From contig JAEERN010000089.1 of NCBI GenBank assembly GCA_016285815.1, forward strand, positions 1 to 30,668: 30,668 nucleotides of DNA. The letters are read 5' to 3'. Both the position numbers and the translations under genes were made by a program. The notes beneath the pieces are model-generated. The model saw nothing but the letters and a program-made list of their open reading frames with translations. It made no database searches and had not been told where the DNA came from. Origin of the DNA: Clostridiales bacterium. Lineage in GTDB: Bacteria > Bacillota > Clostridia > Oscillospirales > QAMX01. Below, in pieces: positions 3,868-24,530 of this stretch (position 1 is the stretch's first letter; every line of letters starts with the position of its first letter).

Positions 3868-4362
3868 ATGCTGAACATCGTATTGGTCGAACCGGAGATC
3901 CCGCAGAACACCGGCAACGTCGCGCGGACCTGCGCCGTGACGGGCAGCGTGCTGCATCTTGTCGGGCCGCTGGGCTTTCGGATCGACGACGCCAAGCTGA
4001 AGCGGGCCGGGCTGGACTATTGGCATTTGCTGGACATCCGGCACTATGTCTCGTTTGACGAGTATTTGGCCCGGAACCCGGACGCGGTCCGCTTTTACGC
4101 CACGACCCACGGCGCCCGCTGTTACACGGACGTCTCCTATCCGGACGGGTGCCACATCCTCTTCGGAAAGGAGAGCGCGGGACTGGATCACCGCCTGATC
4201 TGCGAGCACTACGACCGCGCGATCCGGATCCCCCAGATCAGCGAGGCGCGAAGTCTGAACCTGTCCAATTCGGCGGCCATCGTCGTATACGAGGCCCTGC
4301 GCCAGCTCGGATTTCCGGGCATGCGGCTCAGCGGCGACAGACCGGAGGGAGAACATGTCTGA
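3868..4362 (+). CDS. trmL: tRNA (cytidine/uridine-34-2'-O)-methyltransferase, SPOUT family
   Basis: MLNIVLVEPEIPQNTGN, LKRAGLDYW, FGKESAGL, RSLNLSNS. Alternative start at 3853; TATAAT at 3830-3835 upstream. Confidence 0.92.
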   Translation: MLNIVLVEPEIPQNTGNVARTCAVTGSVLHLVGPLGFRIDDAKLKRAGLDYWHLLDIRHYVSFDEYLARNPDAVRFYATTHGARCYTDVSYPDGCHILFGKESAGLDHRLICEHYDRAIRIPQISEARSLNLSNSAAIVVYEALRQLGFPGMRLSGDRPEGEHV

Positions 4363-5488
4363 ACAGCTGCGTCTTTCCGCCCCCGTGGTCATGGGGGTCG
4401 AGGGGCTTTGCGCCGACGAGCTGCGCCGCGCCGGCTTCGCCGACGTGACGGCGGAGGACGGCCGGGTCTTTTTCGCCGGCGATCTGACCGAGGCGGCCCG
4501 GGCCAACCTGTGGCTGAGGACCGCCGAGCGGGTGCAGATCCTGCTGGGGCGGTTTCCCGCCGGAAGCTTCGAAGAGCTGTTCGAGGGGGTCCGCGCCCTG
4601 CCGCTGGAGGCGCTGATCCCCGCCGACGGCGCGTTCCCCGTCAAGGGCCACAGCGTGAAATCCCGGCTGGTCAGCGTTCCGGACTGTCAGCGCATCATCA
4701 AAAAGGCGGCCGCGGTGCGGCTGGGCGGCGTTTACGGCCGGAACGAGCTGCCGGAGACCGGCGCGCGCTATCAGCTGCACTTCACGCTGATCCGGGACGT
4801 GTGCTCGCTGTATCTGGACACCAGCGGCGAGCCGCTGCACAAGCGGGGCTATCGGGCCGAGTCGACGCTGGCGCCCATCAGCGAGACGCTGGCGGCCGCT
4901 ATGGTGATGATGAGCCGCCGCCGCGGGGACCGGCCCATGATCGATCCCATGTGCGGCTCGGGCACCATCGCCGTCGAGGCGGCGCTGATGGCGGGGAACC
5001 GGGCGCCGGGCCTGGCTCGGCGCTTTGCCCTCGAGCGGTTCGCCGGCTTCGACCGGGCGGCGTTCGCGCGCCTGAAAACAGAGGCGCGCGAGAGCGAGAC
5101 GGCCTTCGAGGGCGAGATCTTCGCCTCGGACGTGGATCCGGAGGCTGCCGAGCTGGCCCGGTCCAACGCCGAAAAGGCCGGGGTCGGAGACAGGATCCTC
5201 GTCTCCGTCGGGGATCTGCGCCAGGTGCGCTATCCGGACAGCGGCGTCGTCATCACCAATCCGCCCTACGGCGAGCGCATCGGCGACCGGGACGAGTCGC
5301 GGCGGCTGTTCGCCTTTCTGGGGCGCGTCACGGCGGCGCGGGAGCTGGGCGCCGTGATCATCTCGCCGGATACCGAACTGGAAAAGGCCTTCGGACGAAA
5401 GGCGGACAAGAAGAGAAAGATCTACAACGGCATGATCCGCTGCGATCTGTACTGCTTCCGGCCGAACCGGCTGTTGAAAAAAGCGTGA
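4355..5488 (+). CDS. THUMP-domain class I SAM RNA methyltransferase (RlmL/YpsC-like, probable 23S m2G)
   Basis: ANLWLRTAERV, LHKRGYR, APISETLAAA, DPMCGSGTIAVEAAL, ITNPPYGERIG; overlaps the trmL stop by 8 nt. Confidence 0.88.
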   Translation: MSEQLRLSAPVVMGVEGLCADELRRAGFADVTAEDGRVFFAGDLTEAARANLWLRTAERVQILLGRFPAGSFEELFEGVRALPLEALIPADGAFPVKGHSVKSRLVSVPDCQRIIKKAAAVRLGGVYGRNELPETGARYQLHFTLIRDVCSLYLDTSGEPLHKRGYRAESTLAPISETLAAAMVMMSRRRGDRPMIDPMCGSGTIAVEAALMAGNRAPGLARRFALERFAGFDRAAFARLKTEARESETAFEGEIFASDVDPEAAELARSNAEKAGVGDRILVSVGDLRQVRYPDSGVVITNPPYGERIGDRDESRRLFAFLGRVTAARELGAVIISPDTELEKAFGRKADKKRKIYNGMIRCDLYCFRPNRLLKKA

Positions 5489-8164: not shown

Positions 8165-9415
8165 ATGTTCGATTGCAAGACCGTCAATGAGTATCTGCTC
8201 GCCGCCGATCCGGAATTGGGGCGGGCCGTGGAGAGCGAGCTTGCCCGCCAGCGGAGCAAGATCGAGCTGATCGCTTCCGAGAATTTCGTGAGCCCGGCGG
8301 TCATGGCCGCCGCCGCTTCGGTTCTGACCAATAAGTACGCCGAGGGGTACCCGGGAAAGCGCTATTACGGCGGGTGCGAGTGTGTGGACGTGGCCGAAGA
8401 GCTGGCCCGCAAGCGCGCCTGTCGGCTGTTCGGCGCGGACCACGCCAACGTTCAGCCGCACAGCGGCGCCAACGCCAACCTGGCGGCCTTTTTCGCCGTT
8501 CTCAAGCCGGGCGACACCGTGCTGAGCATGGACCTGTCCAACGGCGGCCACCTGTCCCACGGAAGCCCCGTGAACATCTCCGGCAAGTATTTCAACATCG
8601 TTCCCTACGGCGTGGATCCCCGGACCCACCGCATCGACTACGACCGGGTCGAGGCGCTGGCCCGTGAAAAGCGGCCGGCCCTGATCCTGGCCGGCGCCAG
8701 CGCGTATCCGCGCGTCATCGACTTTGCGCGCTTCGCCGAGATCGCCCGGTCCGTGGGCGCGGTCTTCATGGTGGACATGGCCCACATCGCGGGCCTCGTG
8801 GCCGCCGGACTGCACCCGTCGCCCGTGCCTTACGCCGACATCGTGACCACCACGACGCACAAGACCCTGCGCGGTCCCCGCGGAGGCATGATCCTCTGCC
8901 GGGAAGAGTACGCCCGCGCCGTCGACAAGGCGGTGTTCCCCGGCACCCAGGGCGGCCCGCTGATGCACATCGTCGCGGGCAAGGCCGTCTGTCTGGGCGA
9001 GGCGCTGAAGCCCGAGTTCAGGGCCTATCAGCAGCGGATCCTCGACAACGCCCAGGCGCTGGCCGCCGGCCTTTTGGAAGAGGGGTTCCGTCTGGTGTCC
9101 GGCGGGACGGACAACCACCTGATGCTGGCCGATCTGCGGCCCTTCGGCAAGACGGGCAAAGAGCTGGAGCACCAGCTGGACGAGGTCAACATCACAGTCA
9201 ACAAGAACACCATCCCGGGCGACCCGGAGAGCCCCTTCGTCACCTCCGGTCTGCGCCTGGGTTCGCCCGCGGCCACCAGCCGCGGACTGGATACGGCCGA
9301 CTTCCGCCGAATCGCCCGGCTCATCGCCGAGACGGCCCGGGACTTCGAGGGCAAGGCGGACGCGATCCGCGCCGAGGTGGCGGACATCTGCGCCGCCCAT
9401 CCGCTGTACGAGTGA
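8165..9415 (+). CDS. glyA: Serine hydroxymethyltransferase
   Basis: [74 protein letters not shown]. Start at ATG 8165 after GGGGGA. Confidence 0.98.
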
Positions 9416-9493
9416 GATATGCTTCGGCCGGTCCGGCTTCCCGCCGGACCGGTCCGGGGCTGCGGCGTCCGGCCGCCGGAACGGGCCGGATCT

Positions 9494-9537
9494 GCGCGCG
9501 GCCGCCCGAAACGGGCGCGGACCGCGCGCTTTCTTCT
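9494..9537 (+). terminator. Probable glyA terminator
   Basis: GCGCGCGG...GCCCG-AAA-CGGGC...CCGCGCGC followed by TTTCTTCT. Confidence 0.55.
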
Positions 9538-9599
9538 GTCCGGCCGGAAACGTTGCCGGACAGGAAAAGGACTTTTCGGGAAAGCGCAGGTGATCTTTC

Positions 9600-10874
9600 G
9601 TGTATCGGCCCCTTGCCGACCAGCTCCGGCCCACCGGGCTGGACGAGGTGGTGGGGCAGGCCCATCTGGTCGCCCGCGGCGCGCTGCTGCGCCGGATGAT
9701 CGAGGGCGGGACCCTGTCCAACATGATCTTTTACGGCCCGTCGGGGGTGGGGAAGACCACCGTGGCCGAGATCGCCGCGCGGCGCACCAGCCGCGCGCTG
9801 CACCGGCTCAACGCCACCACGGCCACCATCGCGGACATCCGGGAGATCTGCGCCGAGACGGAGGGCCTCGGCGCGCCGGACGGCGTTCTGCTGTATCTGG
9901 ACGAGATCCAGTATTTCAACAAGAAACAGCAGCAGAGCCTTCTGGAGTTTCTGGAGAACGGCCGGGTGGTCCTGATCGCGTCGACCACGGAAAACCCTTA
10001 CTTCGCCGTGTACAGCGCCGTGCTCAGCCGGTCCACGATCTTCGAGTTCAAGCCGGTCTCCGCCCCGGAGATCGAAAAGAACCTGCTGCGGATCGAGGCG
10101 GCGGTCAGCGCCCGGCGGGGCAGCGGCTTCGCCCTTTCGCCGGAGGCCAGAAGGGCGATCGCCTTCGGCTGCGGCGGCGACGTTCGAAAGTCCGTCAACG
10201 CGGTGGAGCTTCTGGCCGCCGCGGCGCCGGCCGGCGTGGACTGGACCGTGTCGGCGGAGGACGCCGCCGCGGTGAGCCAGCGGTCCTCCATGCGGTACGA
10301 CCGGGACGGGGACGCCCACTACGACCTGCTGTCCGCGCTTCAGAAGTCCATCCGCGGCAGCGACGCGGACGCGTCGGTCTTCTATCTGGCCCGGCTGCTG
10401 ACGGCGGGGGACCTGCCCGGCGTCTGCCGCCGGCTGCTGGTCATCGCCGCCGAGGACGTGGGGCTGGCCTATCCCCAGGCGGTCCCCGTGGTCAAGGCCT
10501 GCGTGGACGCGGCGCTTCAGCTTGGCCTGCCCGAGGCGCAGCTTCCGCTGTCCGAGGCCGCGGTGCTGATGGCCACCGCACCCAAGTCCAACTCGGTCGC
10601 CGAGGCCATCGCCGCCGCCATGGCGGACGTGGCCGCCGGCCTCGGCGGGGACGTTCCGGCCCACCTGAAGGACGCGCACTACGCCGGGGCGAAAAAGCTG
10701 GGGCGCGGCGAGACGTATCGCTATCCGCACGCGTTCCCGGACCACTGGGTCGCGCAGCGGTATCTGCCGGACGATCTGACGGGAAAGACGTATTACGAAT
10801 TCGGCCCCAACAAGCTGGAACAGGCTTCCAGGGCCTATTGGGACGCGGTGAAAGCCCGATCCCGGGACGAATAG
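9600..10874 (+). CDS. rarA: Replication-associated recombination AAA+ ATPase (RarA/MgsA)
   Basis: PLADQLRPTGLDEVVGQ, Walker A GPSGVGKTT, LDEIQYFNKKQQ, TTENPYF, KSIRGSD, AAEDVGLA, PKSNS, YRYPH; GTG start after AGGTGA. Confidence 0.95.
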   Translation: MYRPLADQLRPTGLDEVVGQAHLVARGALLRRMIEGGTLSNMIFYGPSGVGKTTVAEIAARRTSRALHRLNATTATIADIREICAETEGLGAPDGVLLYLDEIQYFNKKQQQSLLEFLENGRVVLIASTTENPYFAVYSAVLSRSTIFEFKPVSAPEIEKNLLRIEAAVSARRGSGFALSPEARRAIAFGCGGDVRKSVNAVELLAAAAPAGVDWTVSAEDAAAVSQRSSMRYDRDGDAHYDLLSALQKSIRGSDADASVFYLARLLTAGDLPGVCRRLLVIAAEDVGLAYPQAVPVVKACVDAALQLGLPEAQLPLSEAAVLMATAPKSNSVAEAIAAAMADVAAGLGGDVPAHLKDAHYAGAKKLGRGETYRYPHAFPDHWVAQRYLPDDLTGKTYYEFGPNKLEQASRAYWDAVKARSRDE

Positions 10875-10885
10875 AGGAGGACCCC

Positions 10886-11383
10886 ATGGAATTTCGCAAG
10901 ATGCGCCGAAGCGCCCAGCAGCTTTCCCCCGAGGAGACGCTGGCCATCCTGGACCGCGGCAGCTGCGGCGTGCTGGCGCTGGCGGGGGACGGCGGATACC
11001 CCTACGCCGTGCCCATGAGCTACGTCCGCGCGGGGGACAAGCTTTACTTCCACGGCGCCAGGACCGGCCACCGGGCCGACGCGGTCCGCCGGTGCGGCAA
11101 GGCCAGCTTCTGCGTCGTGGATCAGGACGAGGTGGACGCGGAGCGGTTCACCACGCTCTACCGGAGCGCCGTGGTCTTCGGCGTCGTCCGCCGGATCGAG
11201 GATCCGGCGGCGATGCGGGCGGCCTGTCTGCTGCTGGCGGAAAAGTATTCGCCTGGCCGCAGGGAGGCGGCGGAGGCCGAGACCGAACGGGAGTTCCCGG
11301 CCCTCGCCGTCTACGAGCTGACCATGGAACACGTCACGGGGAAAGAGGGCGTCGAGCTGACGCGCGCCCGGAGGAACGGATGA
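10886..11383 (+). CDS. NimA-like / pyridoxamine 5'-phosphate oxidase-family flavin-binding protein
   Basis: ATG 10886 after GAGGAGG; FRKMRRSAQQL, GVLALAGDGGYPYAVPMSY, LYFHGARTGH, SFCVVDQD, FTTLYRSAVVFG, HVTGKE. It is the tail of the 9419-11383 ORF. Confidence 0.85.
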   Translation: MEFRKMRRSAQQLSPEETLAILDRGSCGVLALAGDGGYPYAVPMSYVRAGDKLYFHGARTGHRADAVRRCGKASFCVVDQDEVDAERFTTLYRSAVVFGVVRRIEDPAAMRAACLLLAEKYSPGRREAAEAETEREFPALAVYELTMEHVTGKEGVELTRARRNG

Positions 11384-12213
11384 GGATCGATTTCCACACG
11401 CACGTCTTTCCCGACCGGATCGCCGCGCGGGCGGTGGAAAAGCTGGAGGCGGCGGGCGATATCCGCGCCCTGTCGGACGGGACGGCGGCGGGCCTGGCGG
11501 CCTCCATGGCCGCGGCGGGGATCGATATCTCGGTGACGCTGCCGGTGGCCACCGCCGGGCGGCAGGTGATCTCCATCAACGACGGCGCGCTGGAACAGGT
11601 CCGGACCTTTTCGGGGCGGGGCTTGTTGCCCTTCGGCGCCATGCATCCGGAGTTCGGGGACTATCGGGCCGAGCTGAAGCGGCTGGCCCGGGGCGGCGTT
11701 CGCGGAATCAAGCTGCATCCGGACTATCAGGGGGTCTTTTTCGACGATCCGAGGATCCTGCGGATCGTCGACGCCGCCAACGAGCAGGGGCTTGTGGTGG
11801 TGACCCACGCCGGGGCGGATATCGGCTTCCCGCCGCCTGCGCACTGCACGCCGGAGCGGGTGCTGGCCCTGCTGCGCGCGGTGCGGCCGGACAAGCTGGT
11901 GCTGGCCCACATGGGCGGCTGGCAGATGTGGGACGAGGCGGGCGAAGCGCTGGCCGGAACGGGCGTCTATGTGGACACGGCCTTCGTCCTCGCGCCCCAC
12001 GCCCACCGGGACGGCCGCCCCGTGGACATGCTCTCGCCGGAGAGATTCACGGCGCTGGTCCGGGCCTTCGGCGCGGACCGGGTGCTGTTCGGGACCGACA
12101 GCCCCTGGTCCGATCAGTGCGGGACCGTCCGCCGGATCGAGGCCTGCGGTCTCACCGAAGCCGAGCGCCGGGCCGTATTCCAGGACAACGCCGCGCGCCT
12201 GCTGGGGCTTTGA
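11380..12213 (+). CDS. Amidohydrolase family (Amidohydro_2-like) protein
   Basis: ATGA overlap with upstream gene; IDFHTH, GIKLHPDYQ, THAG, LAHMGG, VDTA, LFGTDSPW. Confidence 0.88.
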   Translation: MRIDFHTHVFPDRIAARAVEKLEAAGDIRALSDGTAAGLAASMAAAGIDISVTLPVATAGRQVISINDGALEQVRTFSGRGLLPFGAMHPEFGDYRAELKRLARGGVRGIKLHPDYQGVFFDDPRILRIVDAANEQGLVVVTHAGADIGFPPPAHCTPERVLALLRAVRPDKLVLAHMGGWQMWDEAGEALAGTGVYVDTAFVLAPHAHRDGRPVDMLSPERFTALVRAFGADRVLFGTDSPWSDQCGTVRRIEACGLTEAERRAVFQDNAARLLGL

Positions 12214-12239: not shown

Positions 12240-12291
12240 AAAAAGCGCGCCGCGGAAAGCCGATCTGGCTCTCCGCGGCGCGGGCCGTTTT
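12240..12291. terminator. Terminator between convergent amidohydrolase and FAD oxidoreductase
   Basis: CGCGCCGCGGA...TCCGCGGCGCG 11-bp outer stem; A-tract at 12240-12244 gives a U-tail on the minus strand. Confidence 0.65.
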
Positions 12292-12323: not shown

Positions 12324-13577
12324 TTATCCGAGGAAGGCGCCGCGGGCCGACAGGATCCGGCGGATCTCGGCGACGTCGGCCTCCGGCACGGGGACCCCCG
12401 CCTTCAGGGCGACGGCCGCGCCGACGCCCGCCGCCTCGCCGGTGGTGGCGCAGATGGGCATGATGCGGATCGAGGCTTGGGCCTCGTGCGTGGCGGAGAG
12501 ACAGCGGCCGCCCACCAGCAGATTGTCCGTTCCCCGGGGGATCAGAGACCGGAAGGGGATCGTGTAGTACGCGCCGGCGGGGAAATAATAGTGGCTGGTG
12601 CCGGTGCCCTCCGGGTTGTGGATGTCGATGTCGTAGTTGCCCGCGGCGATGGCGTCGGGAAAGCGCGTCTCCGCCCGCAGCTCTTCGCCTGTCAGCAGGT
12701 GGAGCCCGTCGATCATGCGGCTCTCGCGCACGCCGACGGCGGGCGCGGAAAAGGCGATCTCGCTGTCTTCGAAGCCCGGGATGTTTTCCTTTAAAAAGCG
12801 GAAGATCTCAAACATCTGCTCGCGGCCCTCGCGCTCGGCCCGGGACAGGTCGAAGGGGTCGGTGGGATCCAGACGCACGATGCGGGTGGTGTTGAAATGC
12901 AGCATCCCGGGCACCAGCGAGTCGAAGACAAGAACGTTCTCCCGCGGGTTTTTGATCTTGCCCTCGCGCTGCAGCGCTTCGTAGAGGGGGTTGATCTCGC
13001 GCCGGTGGGCGCGGAAGCGCTCTTTGTCCACGTTGGCCAGACGGAAGCACAGGGTCATGGGCTGGCAGAGCGAGTCGGCATCCCGGCCCAGACGGAAGGG
13101 ACAGCCGGCGAGATACGCCAGATCGGCGTCTCCCGTGGCGTCCACGTAACAGCAGGCCGACAGGGAAAAGCTGCCCTTTTTGCCGGAGAAGGTGAGTCCG
13201 GTGATGCGGCGCCCGTCCCGGGAGACGCCGGTCAGAAGCGCGTGAAACAGCACGTCCACGCCGGCCTCGGCGGTCATGCGGTCCAGCACGACCTTCATGT
13301 ACTCCTCGTGGAAGGTGCGCTTTCCTTTGATCTGGCCGAGCTCCTCCAGACGGCGGAGGACCTCGGAGAAGATCCCGCGGGAGAGCTCCAGCTGCTCTCC
13401 GGCGCCGTCGGTGGTGGCGAAAGGCATGAAGGGGTTGACGAGACAGTTCACGGCGGCGCCGCCCAGCGCGCCGCCGGCTTCGGCCAGCAGGACGGAAAGC
13501 CCTTCCCGGGCCGCCGCGATGGACGCGGCGACGCCGGTGAGGCCGCCGCCGACCACGATGACGTCATAGTGCTTCAT
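12324..13577 (-). CDS. FAD-dependent oxidoreductase (FAD_oxidored-like), substrate unknown
   Basis: DVIVVGGGLTGVAASIAAAREG Rossmann motif, YVDATGDADLA, GVRESR, YTIPFRSL, NLLVGGRCLS; AGGAGG RBS. Confidence 0.88.
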   Translation of the reverse strand: MKHYDVIVVGGGLTGVAASIAAAREGLSVLLAEAGGALGGAAVNCLVNPFMPFATTDGAGEQLELSRGIFSEVLRRLEELGQIKGKRTFHEEYMKVVLDRMTAEAGVDVLFHALLTGVSRDGRRITGLTFSGKKGSFSLSACCYVDATGDADLAYLAGCPFRLGRDADSLCQPMTLCFRLANVDKERFRAHRREINPLYEALQREGKIKNPRENVLVFDSLVPGMLHFNTTRIVRLDPTDPFDLSRAEREGREQMFEIFRFLKENIPGFEDSEIAFSAPAVGVRESRMIDGLHLLTGEELRAETRFPDAIAAGNYDIDIHNPEGTGTSHYYFPAGAYYTIPFRSLIPRGTDNLLVGGRCLSATHEAQASIRIMPICATTGEAAGVGAAVALKAGVPVPEADVAEIRRILSARGAFLG

Positions 13578-13624
13578 CTTTTCCTCCTGACTGGGGCCGC
13601 TCCGCGGCGGCGGGACCCTGATCG

Positions 13625-14683
13625 TTATGCGTTATAGGCGTGCTTGGCGCGGCGGAACCCGTCGGGGAACAGCCGGGCCGACAGACGGATGCATCGGGTC
13701 ATCCAGCGCGTCAGGGTCACGTTTTTGGTGGCCAGCACGCGGGCGGACAGGCGAAAGGCGCGGCCGCAGTCCCGGGGGAACGTCCGGCAGCGGACCAGCG
13801 CGGGGTCCCGGATCACCCGCCCCACGGCGGCGCGCTTTTCGGCGCGGCTCAAAGGACAGGCGGGCGAGTCCAGCGGCGTCAGGCACGAGAGGGCGCTTTT
13901 GACCAGCATGTAGTTCAAAAGCGGCCGCCGCTCGTTCTCCGGAACGCCGAAGGCGCGGCACAGCTCTTCGATCCGCCGGTCGATGGAAAGACAGATCTCG
14001 AACTTTTCCGGCAGATAGCGGGTCGAAAGCGTCTCCCGCGCGCTGCGGCGATAGCGGTAAAGGGGATAGGGCAGCACCACGGCGCGGGGCGCCGCGGCGA
14101 TGAGGTCGAAGCAGAACAGCCGGTCCTCGCCGAAGGGGACGGCGGGAAAGCGGATCCCGTTCCGCCGGATCAGGTCCAGCGAACAGACCTTGTTCCAGCA
14201 GGGGTTCAGCATGTTCCGGGCGTACAGCTCCAGCACGGCGTCCCGATAGTCGGTCACCGAGTCCAGAACGCGCTCGGCGGCGACGTAGTCGAACATGCTG
14301 TGCTCGTCGACGTTCTCCAGCGCGAAGCCGAAGACGACCAGCTCGGCCTTCTGTTCGGTCAGCGCCCGGACCGCGCTCTCCAGCGCGAAGGGGATCAGAA
14401 GATCGTCGCTGTCGAGAAAGGCGACGTAGCGTCCCCGGGCGGCGTCCAGCGCGCGGTTCCGCGCGGCGGAGACGCCGCCGTTCTCCGCGCTTTTGATCAC
14501 GCGCACGCGCTTGTCCGGCCAGTTCCCGGCCAGCGCGGCGGTGCCGTCGGACGAGCCGTCGTCCGACACGAGAACCTCGAAGGGGAACGAGGTCTTCTGG
14601 GCGCAGACCGAACCCAGCGCCTCGCCCAGCACGCTCTCGGCGTTATGGGCGGGGATGATGACGGAAAGCAGCGGCTCAGACAC
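13625..14683 (-). CDS. Family 2 glycosyltransferase
   Basis: SVIIPAHNAE, VSDDGSSD, GGVSAARN, FLDSDD, PCWNKV, GEDRLF; GTG start overlaps the kinase stop by 8 nt. Confidence 0.88.
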   Translation of the reverse strand: MSEPLLSVIIPAHNAESVLGEALGSVCAQKTSFPFEVLVSDDGSSDGTAALAGNWPDKRVRVIKSAENGGVSAARNRALDAARGRYVAFLDSDDLLIPFALESAVRALTEQKAELVVFGFALENVDEHSMFDYVAAERVLDSVTDYRDAVLELYARNMLNPCWNKVCSLDLIRRNGIRFPAVPFGEDRLFCFDLIAAAPRAVVLPYPLYRYRRSARETLSTRYLPEKFEICLSIDRRIEELCRAFGVPENERRPLLNYMLVKSALSCLTPLDSPACPLSRAEKRAAVGRVIRDPALVRCRTFPRDCGRAFRLSARVLATKNVTLTRWMTRCIRLSARLFPDGFRRAKHAYNA

Positions 14684-15698
14684 AGTAGTCCCGGAATCTC
14701 CGGATCACCTGTTCCGGCGTGGCGAAGCCCGTGACGCCGATCTGCTGGATGGTGATGGAGGAGACGATGTTGCCCATCTGGGCGGCGTCCTCGGCGCTGG
14801 CGCCCAGCGCCAGGCTCAGCACGATGCCGGAGGACGAAGCGTCCCCCGCGCCGCAGATGTCGAAGGGGCCGGGCACGTCGATGGCGGGGGAGACGTGCAT
14901 CCCGGACGCGTCGAAGCAGATGCTGCCCTCTTTGCCGCGGGTGACGAAGACGGGGCGGCCGTTGCGCTCGTAGAGCTTTTTGCCGCATTCAAAGACCACC
15001 GAGTCGTCCGGCTTGCCCTCGAAGTCGGGCATAACGCTCTTGACCACCTCGAAGTTGTTGCACTTGACCACGACGCCGGAGAACAGGTGGATGAACGCGC
15101 GCGAGTCGGCGTAGATGACGAGATCCGGCCGACGGGCGGCCAGCTCCATCAGCGCCTTGCGGACGCTGCGGTTCACGACGCCGCAGTCCTCTTCGACGAA
15201 CTGGTCCAGCACCAGCACGGCCTGGGACGTCTCCGCGCAGCGGTTCAGGTTTTCGATGATCTTCGCCTCGATCTCGGGGCGGACCGGAACGAAGTTCTTG
15301 AAGTCCAGCCGGTTGAGCTCGGCATAGTCGCCGGGCTTGCCGCGCATGGGCTTGGTATAGGTCGAGGTGCAGCGCGCGGGATCCCGGACCATGCCCGAGG
15401 TGTCCGCGCCGATCTTTTCCAGCGCCTGGATCAGCTCCCAGCCCTCGCCGTCCTCGCCGACGATGCCGACGCAGCGGACCTTGGCGGTCAGACCGCGCAG
15501 ATTGTTGGTGACCGTGCCGGCGCCGCCGGGATAGATGCCCTTGCCCACCACCTGATAGGCGGTCAGACCGGTCTCCAGACTGGGCTCGTCCAGATCGGGG
15601 TCGATGTACAGATATTTGTCGAGGCAGAAGTCACCCAGAACGGTGACGGTGCACTCCGGCGCGCGGGACATGAGAGATCGGATGCTTTCGAGAGTCAT
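14676..15698 (-). CDS. PfkB-family kinase, HldE/RfaE kinase-domain-like
   Basis: ATG 15698 after AGGAGG; VLGDFCLDKY, PGGAGTV, VGIVGEDGEG, VTRGKEG, anion-hole DICGAGD. Confidence 0.8.
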   Translation of the reverse strand: MTLESIRSLMSRAPECTVTVLGDFCLDKYLYIDPDLDEPSLETGLTAYQVVGKGIYPGGAGTVTNNLRGLTAKVRCVGIVGEDGEGWELIQALEKIGADTSGMVRDPARCTSTYTKPMRGKPGDYAELNRLDFKNFVPVRPEIEAKIIENLNRCAETSQAVLVLDQFVEEDCGVVNRSVRKALMELAARRPDLVIYADSRAFIHLFSGVVVKCNNFEVVKSVMPDFEGKPDDSVVFECGKKLYERNGRPVFVTRGKEGSICFDASGMHVSPAIDVPGPFDICGAGDASSSGIVLSLALGASAEDAAQMGNIVSSITIQQIGVTGFATPEQVIRRFRDYCV

Positions 15699-15733
15699 GG
15701 CGGTTTCCTCCTGTATTTCTGTTTTGGTCGGGA

Positions 15734-17068
15734 TCACTTCTGAAGGATGAAGTCGACGATCTTCTGAGCCTCTTCAAAGTCCGGGATGACCGCGCCGGCG
15801 CCGGCGCCCACCAGACGCTGGCGCTTCCACTCGTCGATGCCGCACTTGCGGGCCTCGTCCGTGGCGACGGCGATGGGATAGCCGCCGATGCGGGAGACCA
15901 GCTCGATCTCCACGAACCCGTCGCCGAAGCTCAGCAGCTCGCTGCCGTCCAGATCGTTTTCCGCCAGCAGGCGGCGGATGACCAGCTCTTTCGTGCAGGC
16001 GGTGGCGTGCTCGTCCAGCGCGCCGTAGATGTTTTCGCCGAAATAGCGGTCCATGCCCAGCAGGGCCGCCTCTTCGCGGACCTGAGGCTGGTCGGTGCCG
16101 GAGGCGCAGTAGAGCCGGATGCCGTTGTCCAAAAGCGTCTGCAGCAGCTTGCACGAGCCGCGGACCAGCAGCGTCTCGGGGTCGATCTCGCCGCTGCGGA
16201 GGCCCTCGCGCCGGTCGTGGATCTTTTCCATCAGACGGCGGATGTACTCGGCCTTGTAGTCCATGGGATCCAGCGGCGTGCCGCCGCGCTTTTTGATCTC
16301 GTCGGCCAGGGCCATGCACTGGTAGATGGTCTGTTTCCCGGTCAGCATGTCGACGAACTCGGTGACGCAGCGCTCGATCTCCTCGGGCGTTTCGTCCGCC
16401 GCGCCGGGGGCCTTGACCAGCTCTTCGCAGAAATAGGGGATCATGATCTTCTGCCAGCCCTCGCGGATCAGGGACAGGGTCCCGTCAAAGTCGAACAGGG
16501 CGAACTTGAAGTCGTGGCCGTCGGGCGGGAAGATGACCTCGAGGCCCCACTCGTCCTTCAGCGTCTCGCGGACGGTGCGGATGACGGCGTGGAAGGCGAT
16601 GAAGCAGATGTCGGCCACCTCGGAGGGACAGCCGCTGTCGACGAAGAAGCGCAGGTCGGCGCTTTCCGCCAGCGCCTCGCCGCCGAGGCCGGTGAAGGCC
16701 ACGGTCTTCAGACCGGCCGCGGACGCGGCGGCCGAAAGGGCGGTCAGCGCGTCGTCTGCGCCGAAGGTCGCCAGCACGTCGCCAGCGCCGGCGGCGTCCG
16801 GAAGGGCGGCGGGACAGGCGCCGAGACAGACGGCGTTCAGGCCCTTGCGGCCCAGAACGGCACAGCCGCGGGACAGACTGACGGCCGCGTCGGCCGCCAT
16901 GCCGGCGGTGCGTTCGCTGCCGGCGGTATAGACGGTGCCGCCGGCTTTCCAGACGGAGACGAAAAGCCCGGCGGCCGCGGTGACGGCGGATTCGTCGATG
17001 CCGGCCTTCAGGGCGGAAACGGCGTCAAGGTAGCCGCGGGCGGCCGCGGCGGGATCCTGTTTGCTCAT
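15734..17068 (-). CDS. Fusion of degenerate GmhA-like SIS domain (N-terminal ~140 aa) and HAD-superfamily hydrolase
   Basis: N-terminus GGTVYTAG..GDVL..GLKTVAFTGLGG..ADLRFFV..H follows SIS/GmhA layout; C-terminus has FDFDGTLS (HAD I), CASGT (II), SFGDG (IV); GAGAGG RBS. Confidence 0.8.
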   Translation of the reverse strand: MSKQDPAAAARGYLDAVSALKAGIDESAVTAAAGLFVSVWKAGGTVYTAGSERTAGMAADAAVSLSRGCAVLGRKGLNAVCLGACPAALPDAAGAGDVLATFGADDALTALSAAASAAGLKTVAFTGLGGEALAESADLRFFVDSGCPSEVADICFIAFHAVIRTVRETLKDEWGLEVIFPPDGHDFKFALFDFDGTLSLIREGWQKIMIPYFCEELVKAPGAADETPEEIERCVTEFVDMLTGKQTIYQCMALADEIKKRGGTPLDPMDYKAEYIRRLMEKIHDRREGLRSGEIDPETLLVRGSCKLLQTLLDNGIRLYCASGTDQPQVREEAALLGMDRYFGENIYGALDEHATACTKELVIRRLLAENDLDGSELLSFGDGFVEIELVSRIGGYPIAVATDEARKCGIDEWKRQRLVGAGAGAVIPDFEEAQKIVDFILQK

Positions 17069-17199: not shown

Positions 17200-17228
17200 A
17201 TTATAGCACAAGCGCGCCGCCGTGCCAA
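17200..17228 (-). promoter_or_regulatory. SigmaA promoter of the SIS-HAD/kinase/GT2/FAD operon
   Basis: Minus strand TTGGCA-17 nt-TATAAT with TGC extension. Confidence 0.75.
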
Positions 17229-17358
17229 GAGACCGGACAGGGAAATTTGTAAAAAAACTGTGGGACGGCTTGCAAAATCCTTTGGGGGGCCGTGCCAAGA
17301 GACCGGACAGGGAAATTTGTAAAAAAACTGTGGGACGGCTTGCAAAATCCTTTGGGGG
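17219..17358. repeat. Exact 70-bp tandem duplication (17219-17288 = 17289-17358)
   Basis: GCCGTGCCAAGAGACCGGACAGGGAAATTTGTAAAAAAACTGTGGGACGGCTTGCAAAATCCTTTGGGGG occurs twice with no mismatch. Confidence 0.97.
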
Positions 17359-17368
17359 AAGGTATAAT
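17340..17368 (+). promoter_or_regulatory. SigmaA promoter of the GH38 operon
   Basis: TTGCAA-17 nt-TATAAT, about 50 nt upstream of ATG 17420. Confidence 0.75.
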
Positions 17369-17419: not shown

Positions 17420-20400
17420 ATGGACAGACAAATGGTTCGCGCCATCGCCGAGACGCTCAAAAAGCGCACGAGAGTCTCGTATTCCCCCGTCGGCGGGATG
17501 GAGTTCCGGACGGCGAAATACCTCGCCCCGGAGCAGTATGAGTACACCTCAGAGTTCGCCCCCCTTGCGGAAAACTCGGTCATCCCGGAAGAGACGACCT
17601 TTATCCGCGGAAGCATCACCTTCCCGGACGAGATCCTCTGCGGACCGGATTTCCGCGACTATCTGAACATCGTCATCCCTGACCGTGAGGGGATCCTCAC
17701 CATCGACGGCGAGCCCTATCACGGCGTCGACCGCAACCGCAGCCGCGTGCCGCTGCGCCCCGAATGGGCCGGGACCACGAAGTCCTTCGAGCTGGCCGTG
17801 TTCTCCCGCAACGCCCGCAAGACCTTCGTCGAGGGGATCGGCATCGAGCGCGTCGATCTGAAGATCGAAAGCTGCTATTACCTCTATCTGGTGGCCAACG
17901 AGTTCCTGGCGACCTGCGGGAACGAGCCGGACAACGCCCACATCAAGGTCCGCGTCAACGCGGCCATCGAGGCCGCCATCCGGGATCTGGACCTGGACCT
18001 GACGGGCGACGAGCTGCGCGCCTCCGTGGCGCTGGCCGAGTCGCGCCTGACCGAGGGTCTGGCCGCCATCGACGACGGCGACGTCCGCGGGCTCATCAGC
18101 CTCATCGGACACACGCACATCGACGTGGCCTGGCTGTGGCAGCTGAAGGACACCGTCCGCAAGTGCGGCCACTCGTTCACCAATATGCTGCGTCTCATGG
18201 ACGAGTTCCCGGAGTTCACCTTCTCCTGCAGCCAGCTGCAGCTCATGGACTATACCAAACAGTACTATCCCGCGGTGTTCGAACAGATCAAAGAGCGCGT
18301 CCGCGAGGGCCGCTGGGAGATCGTCGGCCCCATGTGGGTCGAGAGCGACTGCAACGTGGTCTCCGGCGAGTCGCTGGTGCGCCAGATGATCTACGGCATC
18401 AACTTCTCGGAGAAAGAGTTCGGCACCCGCAGCCGCGTGGCGTGGCTGCCCGACACCTTCGGCTTCCAGCCCAATATGCCCCAGATCCTCAAGAAGAGCG
18501 GCACGGACTATTTCTACTCCTACAAGCTCCACTGGCAGCACCAGAACCGCTTCCCCTACGGGATGTTCCGCTGGGAAGGCTTGGACGGCAGCGAGATCAT
18601 CTGCTCGACGGCGTTCAACCCCGGCGGCTATAACGGCGAGCCCACCCCCGCGGAGCTGCGGGAGAGCAAGAACAACAACCTGCAGAACGGCGAGTTCGAC
18701 AACGTGATCTTCCCCTACGGCTTTGGCGACGGCGGCGGCGGCCCGACCCGCGAGATGGTCGAGCACGCCAGACGGCTCAAGGATTTCCCGGGCCTGCCGC
18801 GCACGCGCATGGAGCGCGCCGACGAGTATTTCGCCCGGCTGGAGCAGGAACGCGACCGTCTGCCCAAGTGGTTCGGCGAGCTGTACATCGAGACCCACCG
18901 CGGCACCCTCACCACCCAGGGGCACAACAAGCGCGCCAACCGCACGGCGGAGATCGGCTATCAGAACGCCGAAAAACTGGGCGTCGTCGCGTCGCTGCTG
19001 GGCGGCCATCCCGACTGGAACGCCCTGCACGAGGGCTGGAAGAAGATCTTGCTGCTCCAGTTCCACGACATCCTGCCGGGCAGCTCCATCCGCGAGGTGT
19101 ACGCCGAGGACTGTGCGGAGGGCTATCGCTTCATCTTCGACAAGCTGGACGGCTTCAACGCCGGCATCCGTCCCGCCGAGGGCGGCGCGCTGACGGTCTG
19201 GAACCTGCTCTCCTGGGAGCGCAAGGCGCTGGTCAGCGTCGAGCTGGACGCCGCCGAGATCGCGGGCAAGACCGTGGCGGACGCGTCGGGCAAGCTGCTG
19301 CCCACCGTGGTCGAGCCCATCGCGGACGGCCGCGTGCGCGCCACGTTCCCGGCCTGCCTGCCGGCCATGGGCTTCGCCCGCTTCTGCCTGGCCGACGGCG
19401 CCGCCGCCGAGGGACAGGCCGACGCCGTCGCGGTGAACCCCGACGGGAGCATCACCGCCGAGACCGCGGCGTTCCGCGTCACCGTGGACACGCTGGGCCG
19501 TCTGTCCAGTGTCTGGGACAAGGCCCAGGGCCGCGAGGTGCTGGCCGCCCCGGCCAACGACATCCGCCTCTTCCGCGACGGTCCCCAGAGCGAGGACGCG
19601 TGGAACATCTACGACACCTATAAGAACCGCCCGGTGGACTGCGACTGGGCCGTCTCCCTCTCCGTCAAGGAGAACTCGCCGCTGCGCACGGTGATCCACG
19701 TCAGCAAGAAGATCGAGAAGTGCGACATCGAGCAGGACATCTGCCTCTATCCCGACTCGCCGGTCATCGACTTCAAGACTGTGATCGACTGGACCGAGCG
19801 GCACAAGGTCATGCGCGTCTACTTCCCGGCGGACGTCAAGAGCCAGTTCGCCGCCTATGAAGTCGGCTTCGGCACCTTCCTGCGGCCGGCCAAGCAGAAC
19901 ACCAGCTTCGACAAGTCCCGGTTCGAGGTCAACGCCCACAAGTTCGCCGATCTCTCCGAGGGCGATTACGGCGTGTCCCTGCTCAACGACTGCAAGTACG
20001 CCCACAGCTGCGACGACAATGTGCTGGGCCTGACGCTGCTGCGCGGCACCACCAGCCCCGACCCGCTGGCCGATCTGGGCGTCCACGAGATCAACTACGC
20101 GTTCTATCCCCACAAGGGCGACTGGCGCGCGGCCGGCACTGCCCGCCGCGGCCACGAGCTGAACAACGCCCCCGTCGTGTGGCGCACGGCCGCCGATTTC
20201 GGTGCCGGTCTTGCCGGGAAGAGCCTGGTGTCCTGCGACAGCGCGAACATCATCGTCGACACCGTCAAGCCCGCCGAGGACGGCGACGGCGTCATCCTGC
20301 GCGCCTACGAGAGCAACGGTTGCCGCGGCGGCGCCAGGATCTGTCTGGCCAAGGCGCCGGCACAGGTGACGGCGGTGAGCCTCATCGAGGGCGACGACAC

Positions 20401-20479
20401 CCCGGTGGAAGCCGACGGGAACTCCTTTGGCTTCTCCTACGGTCCCTATGAGATCCTGACCTTCCGCGTGAGATTCTGA
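17420..20479 (+). CDS. Alpha-mannosidase, GH38 (cytoplasmic type)
   Basis: ATG 17420 after AAGGAGG; GHTHIDVAWLW, WVESDCN, GESLVRQ, WLPDTFG, FGFGDGGGGP variant, ELYIETHRGT, QFHDILPGSSI, LNDCKYA, LTLLRG; 1019 aa, no signal peptide. Confidence 0.95.
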   Translation: MDRQMVRAIAETLKKRTRVSYSPVGGMEFRTAKYLAPEQYEYTSEFAPLAENSVIPEETTFIRGSITFPDEILCGPDFRDYLNIVIPDREGILTIDGEPYHGVDRNRSRVPLRPEWAGTTKSFELAVFSRNARKTFVEGIGIERVDLKIESCYYLYLVANEFLATCGNEPDNAHIKVRVNAAIEAAIRDLDLDLTGDELRASVALAESRLTEGLAAIDDGDVRGLISLIGHTHIDVAWLWQLKDTVRKCGHSFTNMLRLMDEFPEFTFSCSQLQLMDYTKQYYPAVFEQIKERVREGRWEIVGPMWVESDCNVVSGESLVRQMIYGINFSEKEFGTRSRVAWLPDTFGFQPNMPQILKKSGTDYFYSYKLHWQHQNRFPYGMFRWEGLDGSEIICSTAFNPGGYNGEPTPAELRESKNNNLQNGEFDNVIFPYGFGDGGGGPTREMVEHARRLKDFPGLPRTRMERADEYFARLEQERDRLPKWFGELYIETHRGTLTTQGHNKRANRTAEIGYQNAEKLGVVASLLGGHPDWNALHEGWKKILLLQFHDILPGSSIREVYAEDCAEGYRFIFDKLDGFNAGIRPAEGGALTVWNLLSWERKALVSVELDAAEIAGKTVADASGKLLPTVVEPIADGRVRATFPACLPAMGFARFCLADGAAAEGQADAVAVNPDGSITAETAAFRVTVDTLGRLSSVWDKAQGREVLAAPANDIRLFRDGPQSEDAWNIYDTYKNRPVDCDWAVSLSVKENSPLRTVIHVSKKIEKCDIEQDICLYPDSPVIDFKTVIDWTERHKVMRVYFPADVKSQFAAYEVGFGTFLRPAKQNTSFDKSRFEVNAHKFADLSEGDYGVSLLNDCKYAHSCDDNVLGLTLLRGTTSPDPLADLGVHEINYAFYPHKGDWRAAGTARRGHELNNAPVVWRTAADFGAGLAGKSLVSCDSANIIVDTVKPAEDGDGVILRAYESNGCRGGARICLAKAPAQVTAVSLIEGDDTPVEADGNSFGFSYGPYEILTFRVRF

Positions 20480-20521: not shown

Positions 20522-21352
20522 ATGGCAGGAAAAGCGAACGTCGGCCTTCAGCTCTATACGGTCCGCGACGAACTGAGCCGCGACTTTGTCGGGACGCTGG
20601 AGACGGTCAAAAAACTGGGGTACGAGGGCGTCGAGTTTGCCGGGAACTACGGCGGGCTGGCCGCCGCGGATCTGAAAAAGCTCTGCGCCGAGCTGGGGCT
20701 GGAGATCCTCTCGACGCACTGCTCCTTCGAGAACTTCGAAAAGGACTTCGAGGGGAGTCTGGCCTATCACAAGGAGCTGGGGATCCGCTATCTGGCCATC
20801 CCGTGGATGCCCGCGGACAAATGCCCCGGCAAGCCGGGTTTCGAGTCCATGCGCGGCCTGTTCTGCGATATGCAGAAGGCGCTGGCCGCCGAGGGGATCC
20901 AGCTTCTTTACCACAACCACGATTTTGAGTTCATCCCGCATCCGGACGGCGGTCTGGTCTATGACAGGCTGATCGAGTCCGTTCCGGGGCTGAACCCCGA
21001 ATTCGACGTCTGCTGGGTGACCTATTCCGGCAACGACCCGGTGGCGTATCTGAACAAGTTCGCCGGTCGGGTGGACGTGGTCCATCTCAAGGACTTCGAG
21101 GGCCGCAACAGCGAGCCGGCCTACGCCCTGATCGACGCGGACGGCAACGCCGTCGCCGCCGAGAAGACGGAAGCGGTCAACACCTTCCGCTTCCGCCCGG
21201 TGGGGTCCGGCGTCGTCCGGATGCCCGAGGTGCTGGCCGCGGCCCTGGCTGGCGGCACCAAGTCCTTCATCGTCGAACAGGACGACTGCTACGGCGACGC
21301 CTTCGGCGCCGCCGAGCAGAGCCGCGCCTGGCTGCGGACGATGGGACTGTGA
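20522..21352 (+). CDS. Sugar-phosphate isomerase/epimerase, xylose-isomerase-like TIM barrel (AP_endonuc_2 type)
   Basis: GLQLYTVR, GVEFAG, LYHNHDFEF, EFDVCW, HLKD, IVEQD metal-site motifs; AAGGAG RBS. Confidence 0.88.
   Translation: MAGKANVGLQLYTVRDELSRDFVGTLETVKKLGYEGVEFAGNYGGLAAADLKKLCAELGLEILSTHCSFENFEKDFEGSLAYHKELGIRYLAIPWMPADKCPGKPGFESMRGLFCDMQKALAAEGIQLLYHNHDFEFIPHPDGGLVYDRLIESVPGLNPEFDVCWVTYSGNDPVAYLNKFAGRVDVVHLKDFEGRNSEPAYALIDADGNAVAAEKTEAVNTFRFRPVGSGVVRMPEVLAAALAGGTKSFIVEQDDCYGDAFGAAEQSRAWLRTMGL

Positions 21353-21491: not shown

Positions 21492-24530
<3,039 letters not shown>

Follow-up and report, generated by a model that had tools for sequence, protein, structure and literature searches.

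The window, a stretch of 30,668 nucleotides from a rumen Clostridia genome, carries four co-oriented open reading frames on the minus strand, which encode a SIS–HAD fusion, a PfkB kinase, a GT2 glycosyltransferase and a PF12831 FAD-dependent oxidoreductase (Table 1), with domain assignments backed by Pfam and NCBIfam. The initial annotation had read these genes as an operon under a single promoter with a 35-nt gap, an 8-nt overlap and a 47-nt gap; the spacing proved exact on re-reading, and a strong sigma-70-type promoter was found upstream of the SIS–HAD gene and a terminator after the last gene. Two promoter-like sites were seen in the region compared with 0.4 expected from shuffled sequence. 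Together, promoter, junctions and terminator would be compatible with a single transcription unit, and exact RNA-library contigs fall on three of the four genes, namely SIS–HAD (both parts), kinase and GT2, although they do not prove transcription or co-transcription.

Table 1. Features of the operon and of the divergent gene cluster in the window.
Feature	Position	Strand	Basis or remark
Intrinsic terminator-like hairpin	12246..12282	-	16-bp stem, 13 G-C pairs, T run; directly after last gene
FAD-dependent oxidoreductase, last gene	12324..13577	-	PF12831, E 5e-117
GT2 glycosyltransferase	13625..14683	-	PF00535, E 9e-32; 8-nt overlap with kinase stop
HldE/HldA-like PfkB sugar(-phosphate) kinase, 340 aa	14676..15698	-	rfaE_dom_I, sequence, fold
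SIS–HAD fusion, 444 aa	15734..17068	-	Pseudo-SIS, residues about 1-180; C1-capped HAD, about 185-444
Sigma-70-type promoter of operon	17200..17228	-	TTGGCA, 17 nt, TATAAT, extended -10 TG; 11/12 matches
Perfect tandem duplication, 70 nt	17219..17358	.	Two copies, 100% identical
GH38 alpha-mannosidase	17420..20479	+	Pfam GH38 N, middle and C domains; ATG 17420, ribosome-binding site GAAGGAGG
Xylose-isomerase-like TIM-barrel protein (AP_endonuc_2)	20522..21352	+	Conserved neighbour of cassette
GH2 LacZ-type glycosidase	21498..24530	+	Conserved neighbour of cassette

The divergent arrangement with catabolic glycosidases that had been described for the operon is confirmed by the GH38, TIM-barrel and GH2 genes on the plus strand, an association that synteny shows to be kept across relatives. 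Within this bacterial family, the GH38 gene adjoins the cassette as a conserved neighbour.

The kinase is the clearest link to heptose metabolism. It matches TIGR02198 (rfaE_dom_I) at 123.6 bits, without reaching the curated equivalog cut-off of 345, and this is the top NCBIfam model in all 40 kinase family members, the best of which (E 2.5e-46) also falls well under the cut-off. By sequence, HldA is matched at E 3.4e-9 and identity to HldE is 22-26%; among solved folds HldA is best (Z 36.4, rmsd 2.8 Å, 307 residues aligned), followed by the next PfkB family at Z 31.1, and HldE and HldA account for all of the best 30 Swiss-Prot models. The heptose-pathway resemblance proposed in the initial annotation is therefore borne out by NCBIfam model, fold and Swiss-Prot models alike, and the kinase does not group with ordinary ribokinases or fructokinases. 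Alignment with HldA (4e84) also recovers both motifs quoted there, with GDFCLDKY opposite GDVMLDRY and GGAGTV opposite GGAANV. Residues of the GDxxLDxY and GAGD motifs (G22, D23, D27, G283, A284, G285 and D286) do not vary among 40 homologues. Homologues are likewise 340 residues long; the start codon, ATG 15698, is preceded by a GGAGG ribosome-binding site. The family comprises 465 clusters at 50% identity (E below 1e-30), and the kinase evolves with an omega of 0.09-0.14, a rough value with dS near saturation (0.8-2). Because of its score and its low identity to HldE, both the substrate and the phosphorylated position may differ from those of HldE. An rfaE_dom_II (TIGR02199) adenylyltransferase, fused or separate, was not found in the genome, which is 93% complete, in agreement with the claim that a nucleotidyltransferase is missing; at this completeness, such an enzyme or a second kinase could still have escaped detection.

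The N-terminal half of the fusion protein appears, from its motifs, to be a dead GmhA. Pfam detects the HAD (PF00702, 38.6 bits; cut-off 26.4) and no SIS domain in this protein, and the gmhA model TIGR00441 reaches the N-terminal domain at only 17.8 bits (E 0.0027), below its cut-off of 209 bits. Of the fused homologues, 74 strictly conserve the motifs GNGGS, ANDFxYE, GSGNS, (I/L)EDxH and EH, and 9 have lost them. The window's domain reads GSERT in place of GNGGS, GAD in place of GSGNS and VADIC..FH in place of IEDIH..EH, and a deletion has removed its ANDFxYE segment, so that the degeneracy noted previously extends to all catalytic motifs. The relative P0137 matches solved GmhA structures at E 1e-28. 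A model of the SIS domain superimposes on GmhA structures with TM 0.65-0.75, although the alignment used for folding consisted mostly of intact homologues. Omega reaches 0.77 in the SIS part against 0.14-0.16 in the HAD part, rough values with dS near saturation (0.8-2), and the SIS part diverges 4.6 times as fast as the HAD in decayed pairs compared with 1.3 times in intact pairs, which would fit near-neutral evolution of the dead domain.

The HAD, by contrast with this decay, keeps its catalytic motifs (DxD; S/T; K; GDG..E), with D193, D195, S323, T325, K360, D383 and E387 invariant in 39 homologues, together with invariant basic residues in the cap (R202, K245, K272 and R286). Among solved structures, Lactococcus beta-phosphoglucomutase gives its best fold matches (TM 0.75, E 1e-8, identity 16-20%), and AlnB and phosphoglycolate phosphatase match the fold equally well. 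The GmhB model TIGR00213 has no match in this protein and none across the 93%-complete genome. As had been suggested, the domain is a larger, C1-capped HAD rather than GmhB, and its motifs point to a catalytically intact phosphatase or phosphotransferase.

Comparison with relatives shows a point absent from the initial annotation, namely that the operon is a reduced derivative of a larger cassette. In its full form the cassette comprises a ROK kinase, a GmhA-like SIS fused to the HAD, a GSU2086-family protein and the HldE-like kinase. Both congeners, and other genera as well, have the complete set next to the GH38, TIM-barrel and GH2 genes that adjoin the operon here. In congeners G032 and G033, the GSU2086 gene (NF052581; 374 bits, cut-off 250) lies between the SIS–HAD gene and the kinase gene; next to the window's kinase, neither the gene nor a remnant of it was found within the window. 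A gap in the assembly is an unlikely cause, because the junction between the HAD stop and the kinase start is spanned, with zero differences, by a DNA contig from a public run (possibly of the sample from which the MAG was built). Of the 35 genomes of the bacterial family, 18 have the kinase, and GSU2086 is present in precisely these and no others. At every locus examined, a decayed SIS accompanies the absence of GSU2086 and ROK, and an intact SIS accompanies the presence of GSU2086. Deletion of ROK and GSU2086 with SIS decay arose at least five separate times among relatives, and at least five lineages still carry the reduced architecture; the SIS probably degenerated because the cassette had been reduced. 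Between two lineages that are both reduced, strong purifying selection on the kinase and HAD still holds (omega 0.11).

A second GSU2086 and GmhA-like pair is retained elsewhere in the genome. A genome-wide search for a nucleotidyltransferase and an intact gmhA yielded none of the former; it did yield a GmhA-like gene, SIS_B, with intact motifs on contig C11, where it lies with a GH92 alpha-mannosidase gene, the adjoining GSU2086_B (C11:754-1710; 366 bits, cut-off 250) and manA. The GSU2086_B and SIS_B pair, at 81-94% identity, is present in all five genomes in which the cassette locus is reduced (the window's own and G019-G022) and in the four intact ones examined. From this distribution, ROK, the GmhA-like domain and GSU2086 appear dispensable as a set only where the second pair exists, and the kinase and HAD seem always to be kept.

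Co-conservation of the four genes, as originally envisaged, stands for the kinase and HAD, which in other lineages even form a single fusion protein (the HAD of these fusions is 48% identical to that of the window), and fails for the last two genes. A GT2 orthologue lies downstream of the kinase only in G033 and L012/L013, and its identity is 57%, compared with 90% for the kinase; its omega is 0.31, roughly estimated with dS near saturation. In both the window and G033, the GT2 gene is translationally coupled to the kinase gene. No relative has a counterpart of the FAD oxidoreductase gene next to the cassette; the nearest orthologue (60%) is on another G020 contig. At this locus the GT2 gene is genus-specific and the FAD oxidoreductase gene window-specific, and both are probably passengers that joined the transcription unit recently; a role of the GT2 in glycan decoration and a relevance to ALPK1 are speculation.

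The combination of isomerase, kinase and phosphatase is that of the ADP-L-glycero-beta-D-manno-heptose pathway of Gram-negative LPS (GmhA, HldE or HldA+HldC, GmhB and HldD). The kinase is nearest HldA/HldE by HMM, sequence and fold, including the N-terminal helix, and the SIS domain of relatives keeps every GmhA motif. Unlike that pathway, the operon has neither an adenylyltransferase nor HldD, its kinase reaches about one third of the HldE cut-off, its phosphatase is a large C1-capped HAD instead of the capless GmhB, its isomerase domain is dead, and its host is of Gram-positive type without LPS, with cytoplasmic glycosidase genes as neighbours. A Gram-positive heptose route that also starts with GmhA is the GDP-D-glycero-alpha-D-manno-heptose pathway of S-layer glycans, which proceeds through HddA (a GHMP-type kinase), GmhB and the guanylyltransferase HddC; HddA, GmhB and the guanylyltransferase are absent from the operon. 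PgmB of Lactococcus lactis, a C1-capped subfamily-IA HAD with a beta-sugar 1,6-bisphosphate intermediate, resembles the window's HAD in fold and differs in sequence and in its cap, which is about 25 residues larger in the window.

Another close system is the GSU2086 cassette itself (GmhA-like SIS, GSU2086-family DHS-fold protein, HldE-like kinase and HAD), with which the operon shares its kinase, HAD and SIS families, the link to mannoside and sugar-uptake genes and the absence of a nucleotide-activation step. Unlike that cassette, the window's locus lacks GSU2086 and ROK and has a pseudo-SIS, with the GSU2086 and GmhA-like pair surviving only on another contig, and the HAD is fused to the SIS, not to the kinase. 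The order GmhA-like, GSU2086, HldE-like is that of the Geobacter gmhA-GSU2086-hldE operon, in which GSU2086, described as a hypothetical protein, has hldE on one side and gmhA on the other, and insertions in any of the three genes cause similar fitness defects (PMC5585712). This was the sole paper found, and no published function for the GSU2086-centred cassette was found in the literature.

We propose, as the probable though by no means certain reading, that the operon is a reduced heptose-derived sugar-phosphate cassette whose kinase–HAD core acts in salvage or catabolism of a manno-type sugar, with its partner steps supplied in trans. In the window's lineage, within the genus, the ROK and GSU2086 genes were deleted, after which the fused GmhA-like domain would have lost all its catalytic motifs and drifted near-neutrally; its reading frame may have been preserved solely to provide the HAD with a translation start. 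The remaining working core would be the HldE-type kinase and the capped HAD. With HldE and GmhB as models, the kinase could add a second, anomeric phosphate to a manno-configured sugar phosphate (heptose-7-phosphate or mannose-6-phosphate), and the HAD could then remove or relocate one phosphate. The isomerase and GSU2086 steps would most likely come from the C11 pair beside GH92 and manA; we treat this complementation as an assumption because GSU2086_A of the cassette locus and GSU2086_B are only 40% identical. Salvage or catabolism seems most likely, rather than envelope synthesis, given the divergent cytoplasmic GH38, TIM-barrel and GH2 genes and the lack of a nucleotidyltransferase. Most likely, the pathway converts manno-type sugar phosphates without nucleotide activation and is tied to mannoside use. 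A catabolic role alone leaves the need for both a kinase and a phosphatase unexplained, which counts against the proposal.

One alternative, which we consider unlikely, is that the HAD works as a beta-phosphomutase, like beta-phosphoglucomutase, and converts a beta-sugar-1-phosphate to the 6- or 7-phosphate and back, with either the beta-1-phosphate or the 1,6(7)-bisphosphate activator coming from the HldE-like kinase. Through the kinase–HAD pair a free manno-type sugar would then enter metabolism, making the ROK kinase dispensable, and ROK indeed goes together with SIS_A and GSU2086_A while the kinase and HAD stay. The fold match to the Lactococcus enzyme and the invariant basic cap residues also speak for a mutase. 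However, beta-phosphoglucomutase, with its very many PDB entries, is a generic top match for C1-capped HADs, identity is low and the phosphatases score as high; among the sequence features tested, none discriminates mutase from phosphatase.

A biosynthetic role, the second option of the initial annotation, is rather improbable. Here the kinase and HAD would produce heptose-1-phosphate or mannose-1-phosphate, an unrecognized nucleotidyltransferase would activate it and the GT2 would decorate a cell-surface glycan. Such enzyme logic parallels ADP-heptose synthesis, the founding GSU2086 gene of Geobacter sits in a biosynthetic hldE-gmhA operon (PMC5585712), and the GT2 and kinase genes are translationally coupled. 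Against it, the GT2 is not at the locus outside the genus and evolves fast compared with the kinase, no rfaE_dom_II was found in the genome (93% complete), and the conserved neighbours are cytoplasmic glycosidases, ROK, sugar transporters and manA, with no envelope genes. That the whole operon is a decaying remnant without current function, heading for loss, is highly improbable: the loss of two genes, a dead domain and a duplication in the promoter region speak for it, but purifying selection acts strongly on the kinase and HAD, also between reduced lineages, their catalytic motifs are all intact, the reduced architecture is retained in several lineages, and exact RNA-library contigs, no proof of transcription in themselves, lie on the operon genes.

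A bolder reading, which we regard as doubtful, is a nucleotide-free heptose-phosphate pathway in LPS-free gut Clostridia. In a catabolic version, the HAD would be a beta-phosphoheptomutase, and GSU2086 and GmhA would return the carbon to sedoheptulose-7-phosphate; the manno-heptoses would come from the envelopes of other bacteria, and the route would be the first of its kind. In a producing version, mannosides would induce formation of beta-heptose 1,7-bisphosphate or 1-phosphate. Were either version true, Gram-positive commensals would hold heptose phosphates related to ALPK1 agonists, and the repeated joint loss of ROK, SIS and GSU2086 would mark these as one sub-pathway, separable from the kinase–HAD step.

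The GSU2086-centred cassette is widespread and functionally uncharacterized, and the window offers a natural dissection of how its enzymes depend on one another. This dissection points to enzymes worth assaying jointly, GSU2086 with the product of GmhA, and makes natural kinase–HAD-only operons available for comparison. It also provides a clean example of a catalytic domain that apparently became a neutral spacer once its pathway partner was lost. If the substrate is a heptose phosphate, rumen Gram-positive bacteria would have a heptose pathway tied to mannoside breakdown.

The 70-nt tandem duplication between the divergent genes spans the -35 boxes of both promoters. In two independent DNA runs the repeat is single-copy, X1 and X2 skipping from 17218 to 17289.

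The locus is an offshoot of the heptose pathway in which strong constraint acts on a kinase of HldE type and on a capped HAD domain, both lying beside cytoplasmic mannosidase genes, and its main value lies in the natural dissection of an uncharacterised pathway. The window, contig C120, comes from a metagenome-assembled genome of 2.03 Mb (93% complete, about 68% G+C) that carries a SpoIIE gene; annotation assigns the relatives of this genome to Clostridia or Oscillospiraceae. More than ten studies of gut metagenomes, bovine and sheep, contain the same stretch. The four minus-strand open reading frames lie where the initial annotation had placed them, and the single promoter it proposed ahead of them was located as a near-consensus site. 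The 35-nt gap, 8-nt overlap and 47-nt gap that it described follow from the kinase ATG listed in the table. Exact contigs from two RNA libraries fall on the SIS, HAD, kinase and GT2 parts, and one RNA-library contig runs from the 3′ end of HAD into the 35-nt gap; these contigs hint at transcription. The HAD–kinase junction is bridged, with zero differences, by a DNA contig that supports this architecture well.

Features of the operon region, of the second locus on contig C11 and of the paired TIM-barrel genes in relatives
Feature	Position	Strand	Remarks
SIS–HAD protein, 444 aa	window 15734-17068	minus	HAD = PF00702; N-terminal part matches gmhA at E 0.0027 only
PfkB kinase	window 14676-15698	minus	start ATG 15698, GGAGG site upstream; homologues 340 aa
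GT2 glycosyltransferase	window 13625-14683	minus	third gene of operon; profile search
FAD-dependent oxidoreductase	window 12324-13577	minus	last operon gene; PF12831
Near-consensus promoter	window 17228-17200	minus	11/12 matches, extended -10
Terminator, 16-bp stem	window 12282-12246	minus	immediately 3′ of last operon gene
GH38 promoter	window 17340-17368		TTGCAA-17-TATAAT
Second locus (L018)	C11 87-5480
GH92 α-mannosidase	C11 2124-4247	minus
GSU2086_B	C11 754-1710	minus
SIS_B, GmhA-like, intact	C11 89-700	minus	contig ends there
Class I manA	C11 about 4346-5479	plus	divergent from GH92
Paired TIM-barrel genes	L019 1446-3102
Paired TIM-barrel genes	L020 3941-5578
Paired TIM-barrel genes	P0130 contig (G020)

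The core kept in relatives consists of SIS–HAD, a protein of about 323 residues and the kinase, in that order. At 374 bits (cut-off 250), the middle protein clearly belongs to the NCBIfam GSU2086 family, and its similarity to deoxyhypusine-synthase and ArgZ-type Rossmann domains is no more than faint. Within the window's bacterial family, the full locus comprises GH2, TIM barrel and GH38 and, divergently, ROK, SIS–HAD, GSU2086 and kinase; the two congeneric species, G032 and G033, have this form, with kinases 89–90% identical to that of the window. The window locus lacks ROK and GSU2086: no remnant of either was detected in the window at E < 0.3, and a search for a ROK orthologue elsewhere in the genome returned only paralogues at 29–34% identity. 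Every inspected locus with a decayed SIS domain lacks both genes (window, L014, L015/16, L019, L020 and those of genomes G019–G022, G020 being the carrier of protein P0130), and every locus with an intact SIS domain has GSU2086 (L006–L013 and those of G032, G033, G016 and G007). The bridging DNA contig, the SIS decay and the same architecture in four other species rule out an assembly artefact as the source of the GSU2086 absence.

Across 74 fused SIS homologues, GNGGS, ANDFxYE, GSGNS, (I/L)EDxH and EH are strictly kept, and searches with such intact fused domains hit solved structures of GmhA (E 1e-28). Alignment bears out the degeneracy first noticed in the window domain, which lacks the GmhA motifs: GNGGS has become GSERT, GSGNS has become GAD, the last two motifs read VADIC..FH, and about 17 residues that include ANDFxYE are deleted. 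Decay is present in nine proteins of the set, L015 and P0135 being full-length intermediates. On a tree of the HAD domain (121 rows) it requires six changes, at least five of them forced by well-supported branches, and the proteins of the window and L014 are each nested among intact sisters. Between P0130 and P0131, identity is 99% over HAD and falls to 71% over SIS, and the SIS/HAD divergence ratio averages 4.6× over decayed pairs compared with 1.3× in intact pairs. Nei–Gojobori estimates, which are rough because dS is near saturation, give ω of 0.77 (SIS) and 0.16 (HAD) between the window and an intact congener, compared with 0.16 and 0.13 for an intact–intact pair. Judged from these sequence comparisons, the decayed domain evolves almost neutrally. 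L015 looks like a transitional stage of reduction, because its SIS domain is full-length yet has already lost GNGGS and GSGNS. At the same locus (9125–10001), the GSU2086 gene has given way to non-coding DNA, AT-richer and about 870 nt long.

The kinase was initially likened to HldE by its motifs, which align with those of Burkholderia HldA, its sole full-length PDB match by sequence. Among NCBIfam models it scores highest with rfaE_dom_I, at 123.6 bits (cut-off 345), and reaches 49 bits with the ribokinase model; rfaE_dom_I also ranks first in 40 of 40 homologues tested. A predicted structure (pLDDT 95.7) superposes best on HldA (Z 36.4 over 307 residues, 2.8 Å; best non-HldA kinase, Z 31.1), and HldE and HldA account for all of the 30 best Swiss-Prot models, with Geobacter HldE at the top. 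These HMM, sequence, fold and Swiss-Prot rankings place the protein, which at 22–26% identity is not an equivalog, next to the clade of HldE kinases rather than with ribokinases or fructokinases. The family comprises 465 clusters at 50% identity (E < 1e-30). With ω of 0.09–0.14, and 0.11 between two reduced lineages, the kinase is the most constrained gene of the locus. A literature search on HldE in Firmicutes found nothing relevant.

The four HAD motifs are kept without exception in 39 homologues. The domain is not GmhB, from which it had already been set apart: neither the SIS–HAD protein nor the whole genome contains a match to TIGR00213 (GmhB). A sequence search of the PDB gave only a marginal match (E 0.026); the nearest solved folds are those of C1-capped subfamily IA, namely β-phosphoglucomutase (TM 0.75), AlnB and phosphoglycolate phosphatases. 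Other lineages carry members of these HAD and kinase families as one fused protein. An example is the 639-aa fusion P0294, of which the HAD part is 48% identical to that of the window (E 1e-82); the partner in the window is SIS, not kinase. These alternative fusions argue that all of the activities belong to one pathway.

Exactly the same 18 of 35 species genomes of the bacterial family carry the kinase and GSU2086 families. There are two GSU2086 genes where locus A (the cassette beside GH38, TIM barrel and GH2) is intact and one where it is reduced. The sole GSU2086 of reduced genomes is that of a GSU2086_B and GmhA-like SIS_B pair, 81–94% identical to the pair at locus B on contig C11 of the window's genome, where it follows GH92 and SIS_B keeps the GmhA motifs. 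In other genomes locus B has varying neighbours, among them GH92, GH78 rhamnosidases and a hydrogenase-like gene, and in the genomes compared the pair has no conserved kinase or HAD beside it. In the simplest reading, the isomerase and GSU2086 copies of locus A duplicate what the B pair provides and have been shed repeatedly, whereas the kinase and HAD have no backup. We infer that the B pair complements the lost A copies in trans, and put this conditionally because the GSU2086 copies at A and B are only 40% identical. A role for the GmhA-like SIS as a stand-in mannose-6-P isomerase was ruled out by the class I manA on C11 and in most cassette-bearing genomes.

The closest Swiss-Prot model to the kinase, Geobacter sulfurreducens HldE, is presumably GSU2085. 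In the hldE–gmhA operon of that organism, GSU2086 lies between hldE (GSU2085) and gmhA (GSU2087), and transposon insertions in hldE, GSU2086 and gmhA cause similar electrode fitness defects (−3.1, −3.2 and −3.7), with polar effects possible (PMC5585712, the one paper that we found naming GSU2086). GSU2086 is thus a neighbour of hldE there, just as it stands next to the HldE-like kinase in the cassette of the relatives. This operon and its insertion phenotypes tie the GSU2086 family to genuine heptose-phosphate metabolism, which fits the closest Swiss-Prot model of the kinase. Literature searches found no publication describing the cassette and nothing on heptose catabolism, heptose salvage or a heptosidase.

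The proposed scheme is modelled on HldE and GmhB: the kinase would put an anomeric phosphate on a sugar phosphate of manno configuration, either heptose-7-P or mannose-6-P, after which the HAD would remove or relocate one phosphate; SIS_B and GSU2086_B would link the pathway to a ketose phosphate. As a rival to this scheme, the HAD may act as a β-mutase. The conserved neighbours of the cassette are glycosidases, ROK, sugar transporters and manA, and the nucleotidyltransferase reported missing from the operon was not found in the genome either, which favours salvage or catabolism over envelope synthesis. The conservation pattern of GT2 speaks against biosynthesis through this gene: GT2 overlaps and follows the kinase in the genus only (G033, L012/13; 57% identity, ω 0.31), and homologues in other genomes lie elsewhere than at the locus, with only 33–36% identity. 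No relative has a gene at the locus that corresponds to the FAD oxidoreductase; the nearest orthologue (60%) sits on another contig of G020, and congeners have none above 34%. A co-conserved four-gene unit is therefore not supported, and conservation rules out both genes as core pathway members; they are within the transcription unit and outside the conserved system. Selection maintained on the kinase and HAD leaves almost no room for plain gene decay of the operon.

GH38, the xylose-isomerase-like TIM barrel and GH2 are transcribed away from the operon, in line with the divergent glycosidases first described. The longest GH38 open reading frame begins at GTG 17222 and homologues are 1019–1022 aa; ATG 17420, preceded by a GAAGGAGG site, is most likely the true start. 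Between the divergent genes, a perfect 70-nt tandem duplication (17219–17358) doubles both −35 boxes and the AT-rich segment between them. The repeat is single-copy in two independent DNA runs (X1 and X2), so the duplication is strain variation or an assembly artefact. Where the window has a single xylose-isomerase-like TIM-barrel gene between GH38 and GH2, several relatives have two side by side. Downstream of GH2 lies a DUF6259-like gene (24710–25985), an open reading frame of 416 aa whose Pfam match is no more than weak. An Amidohydro_2 (PF04909) gene adjoins locus A (window 11092–12213, plus strand, convergent with the FAD oxidoreductase) and another adjoins locus B (L018 5476–6279, plus strand); the two are 26% identical, and their presence beside both loci may be coincidence.
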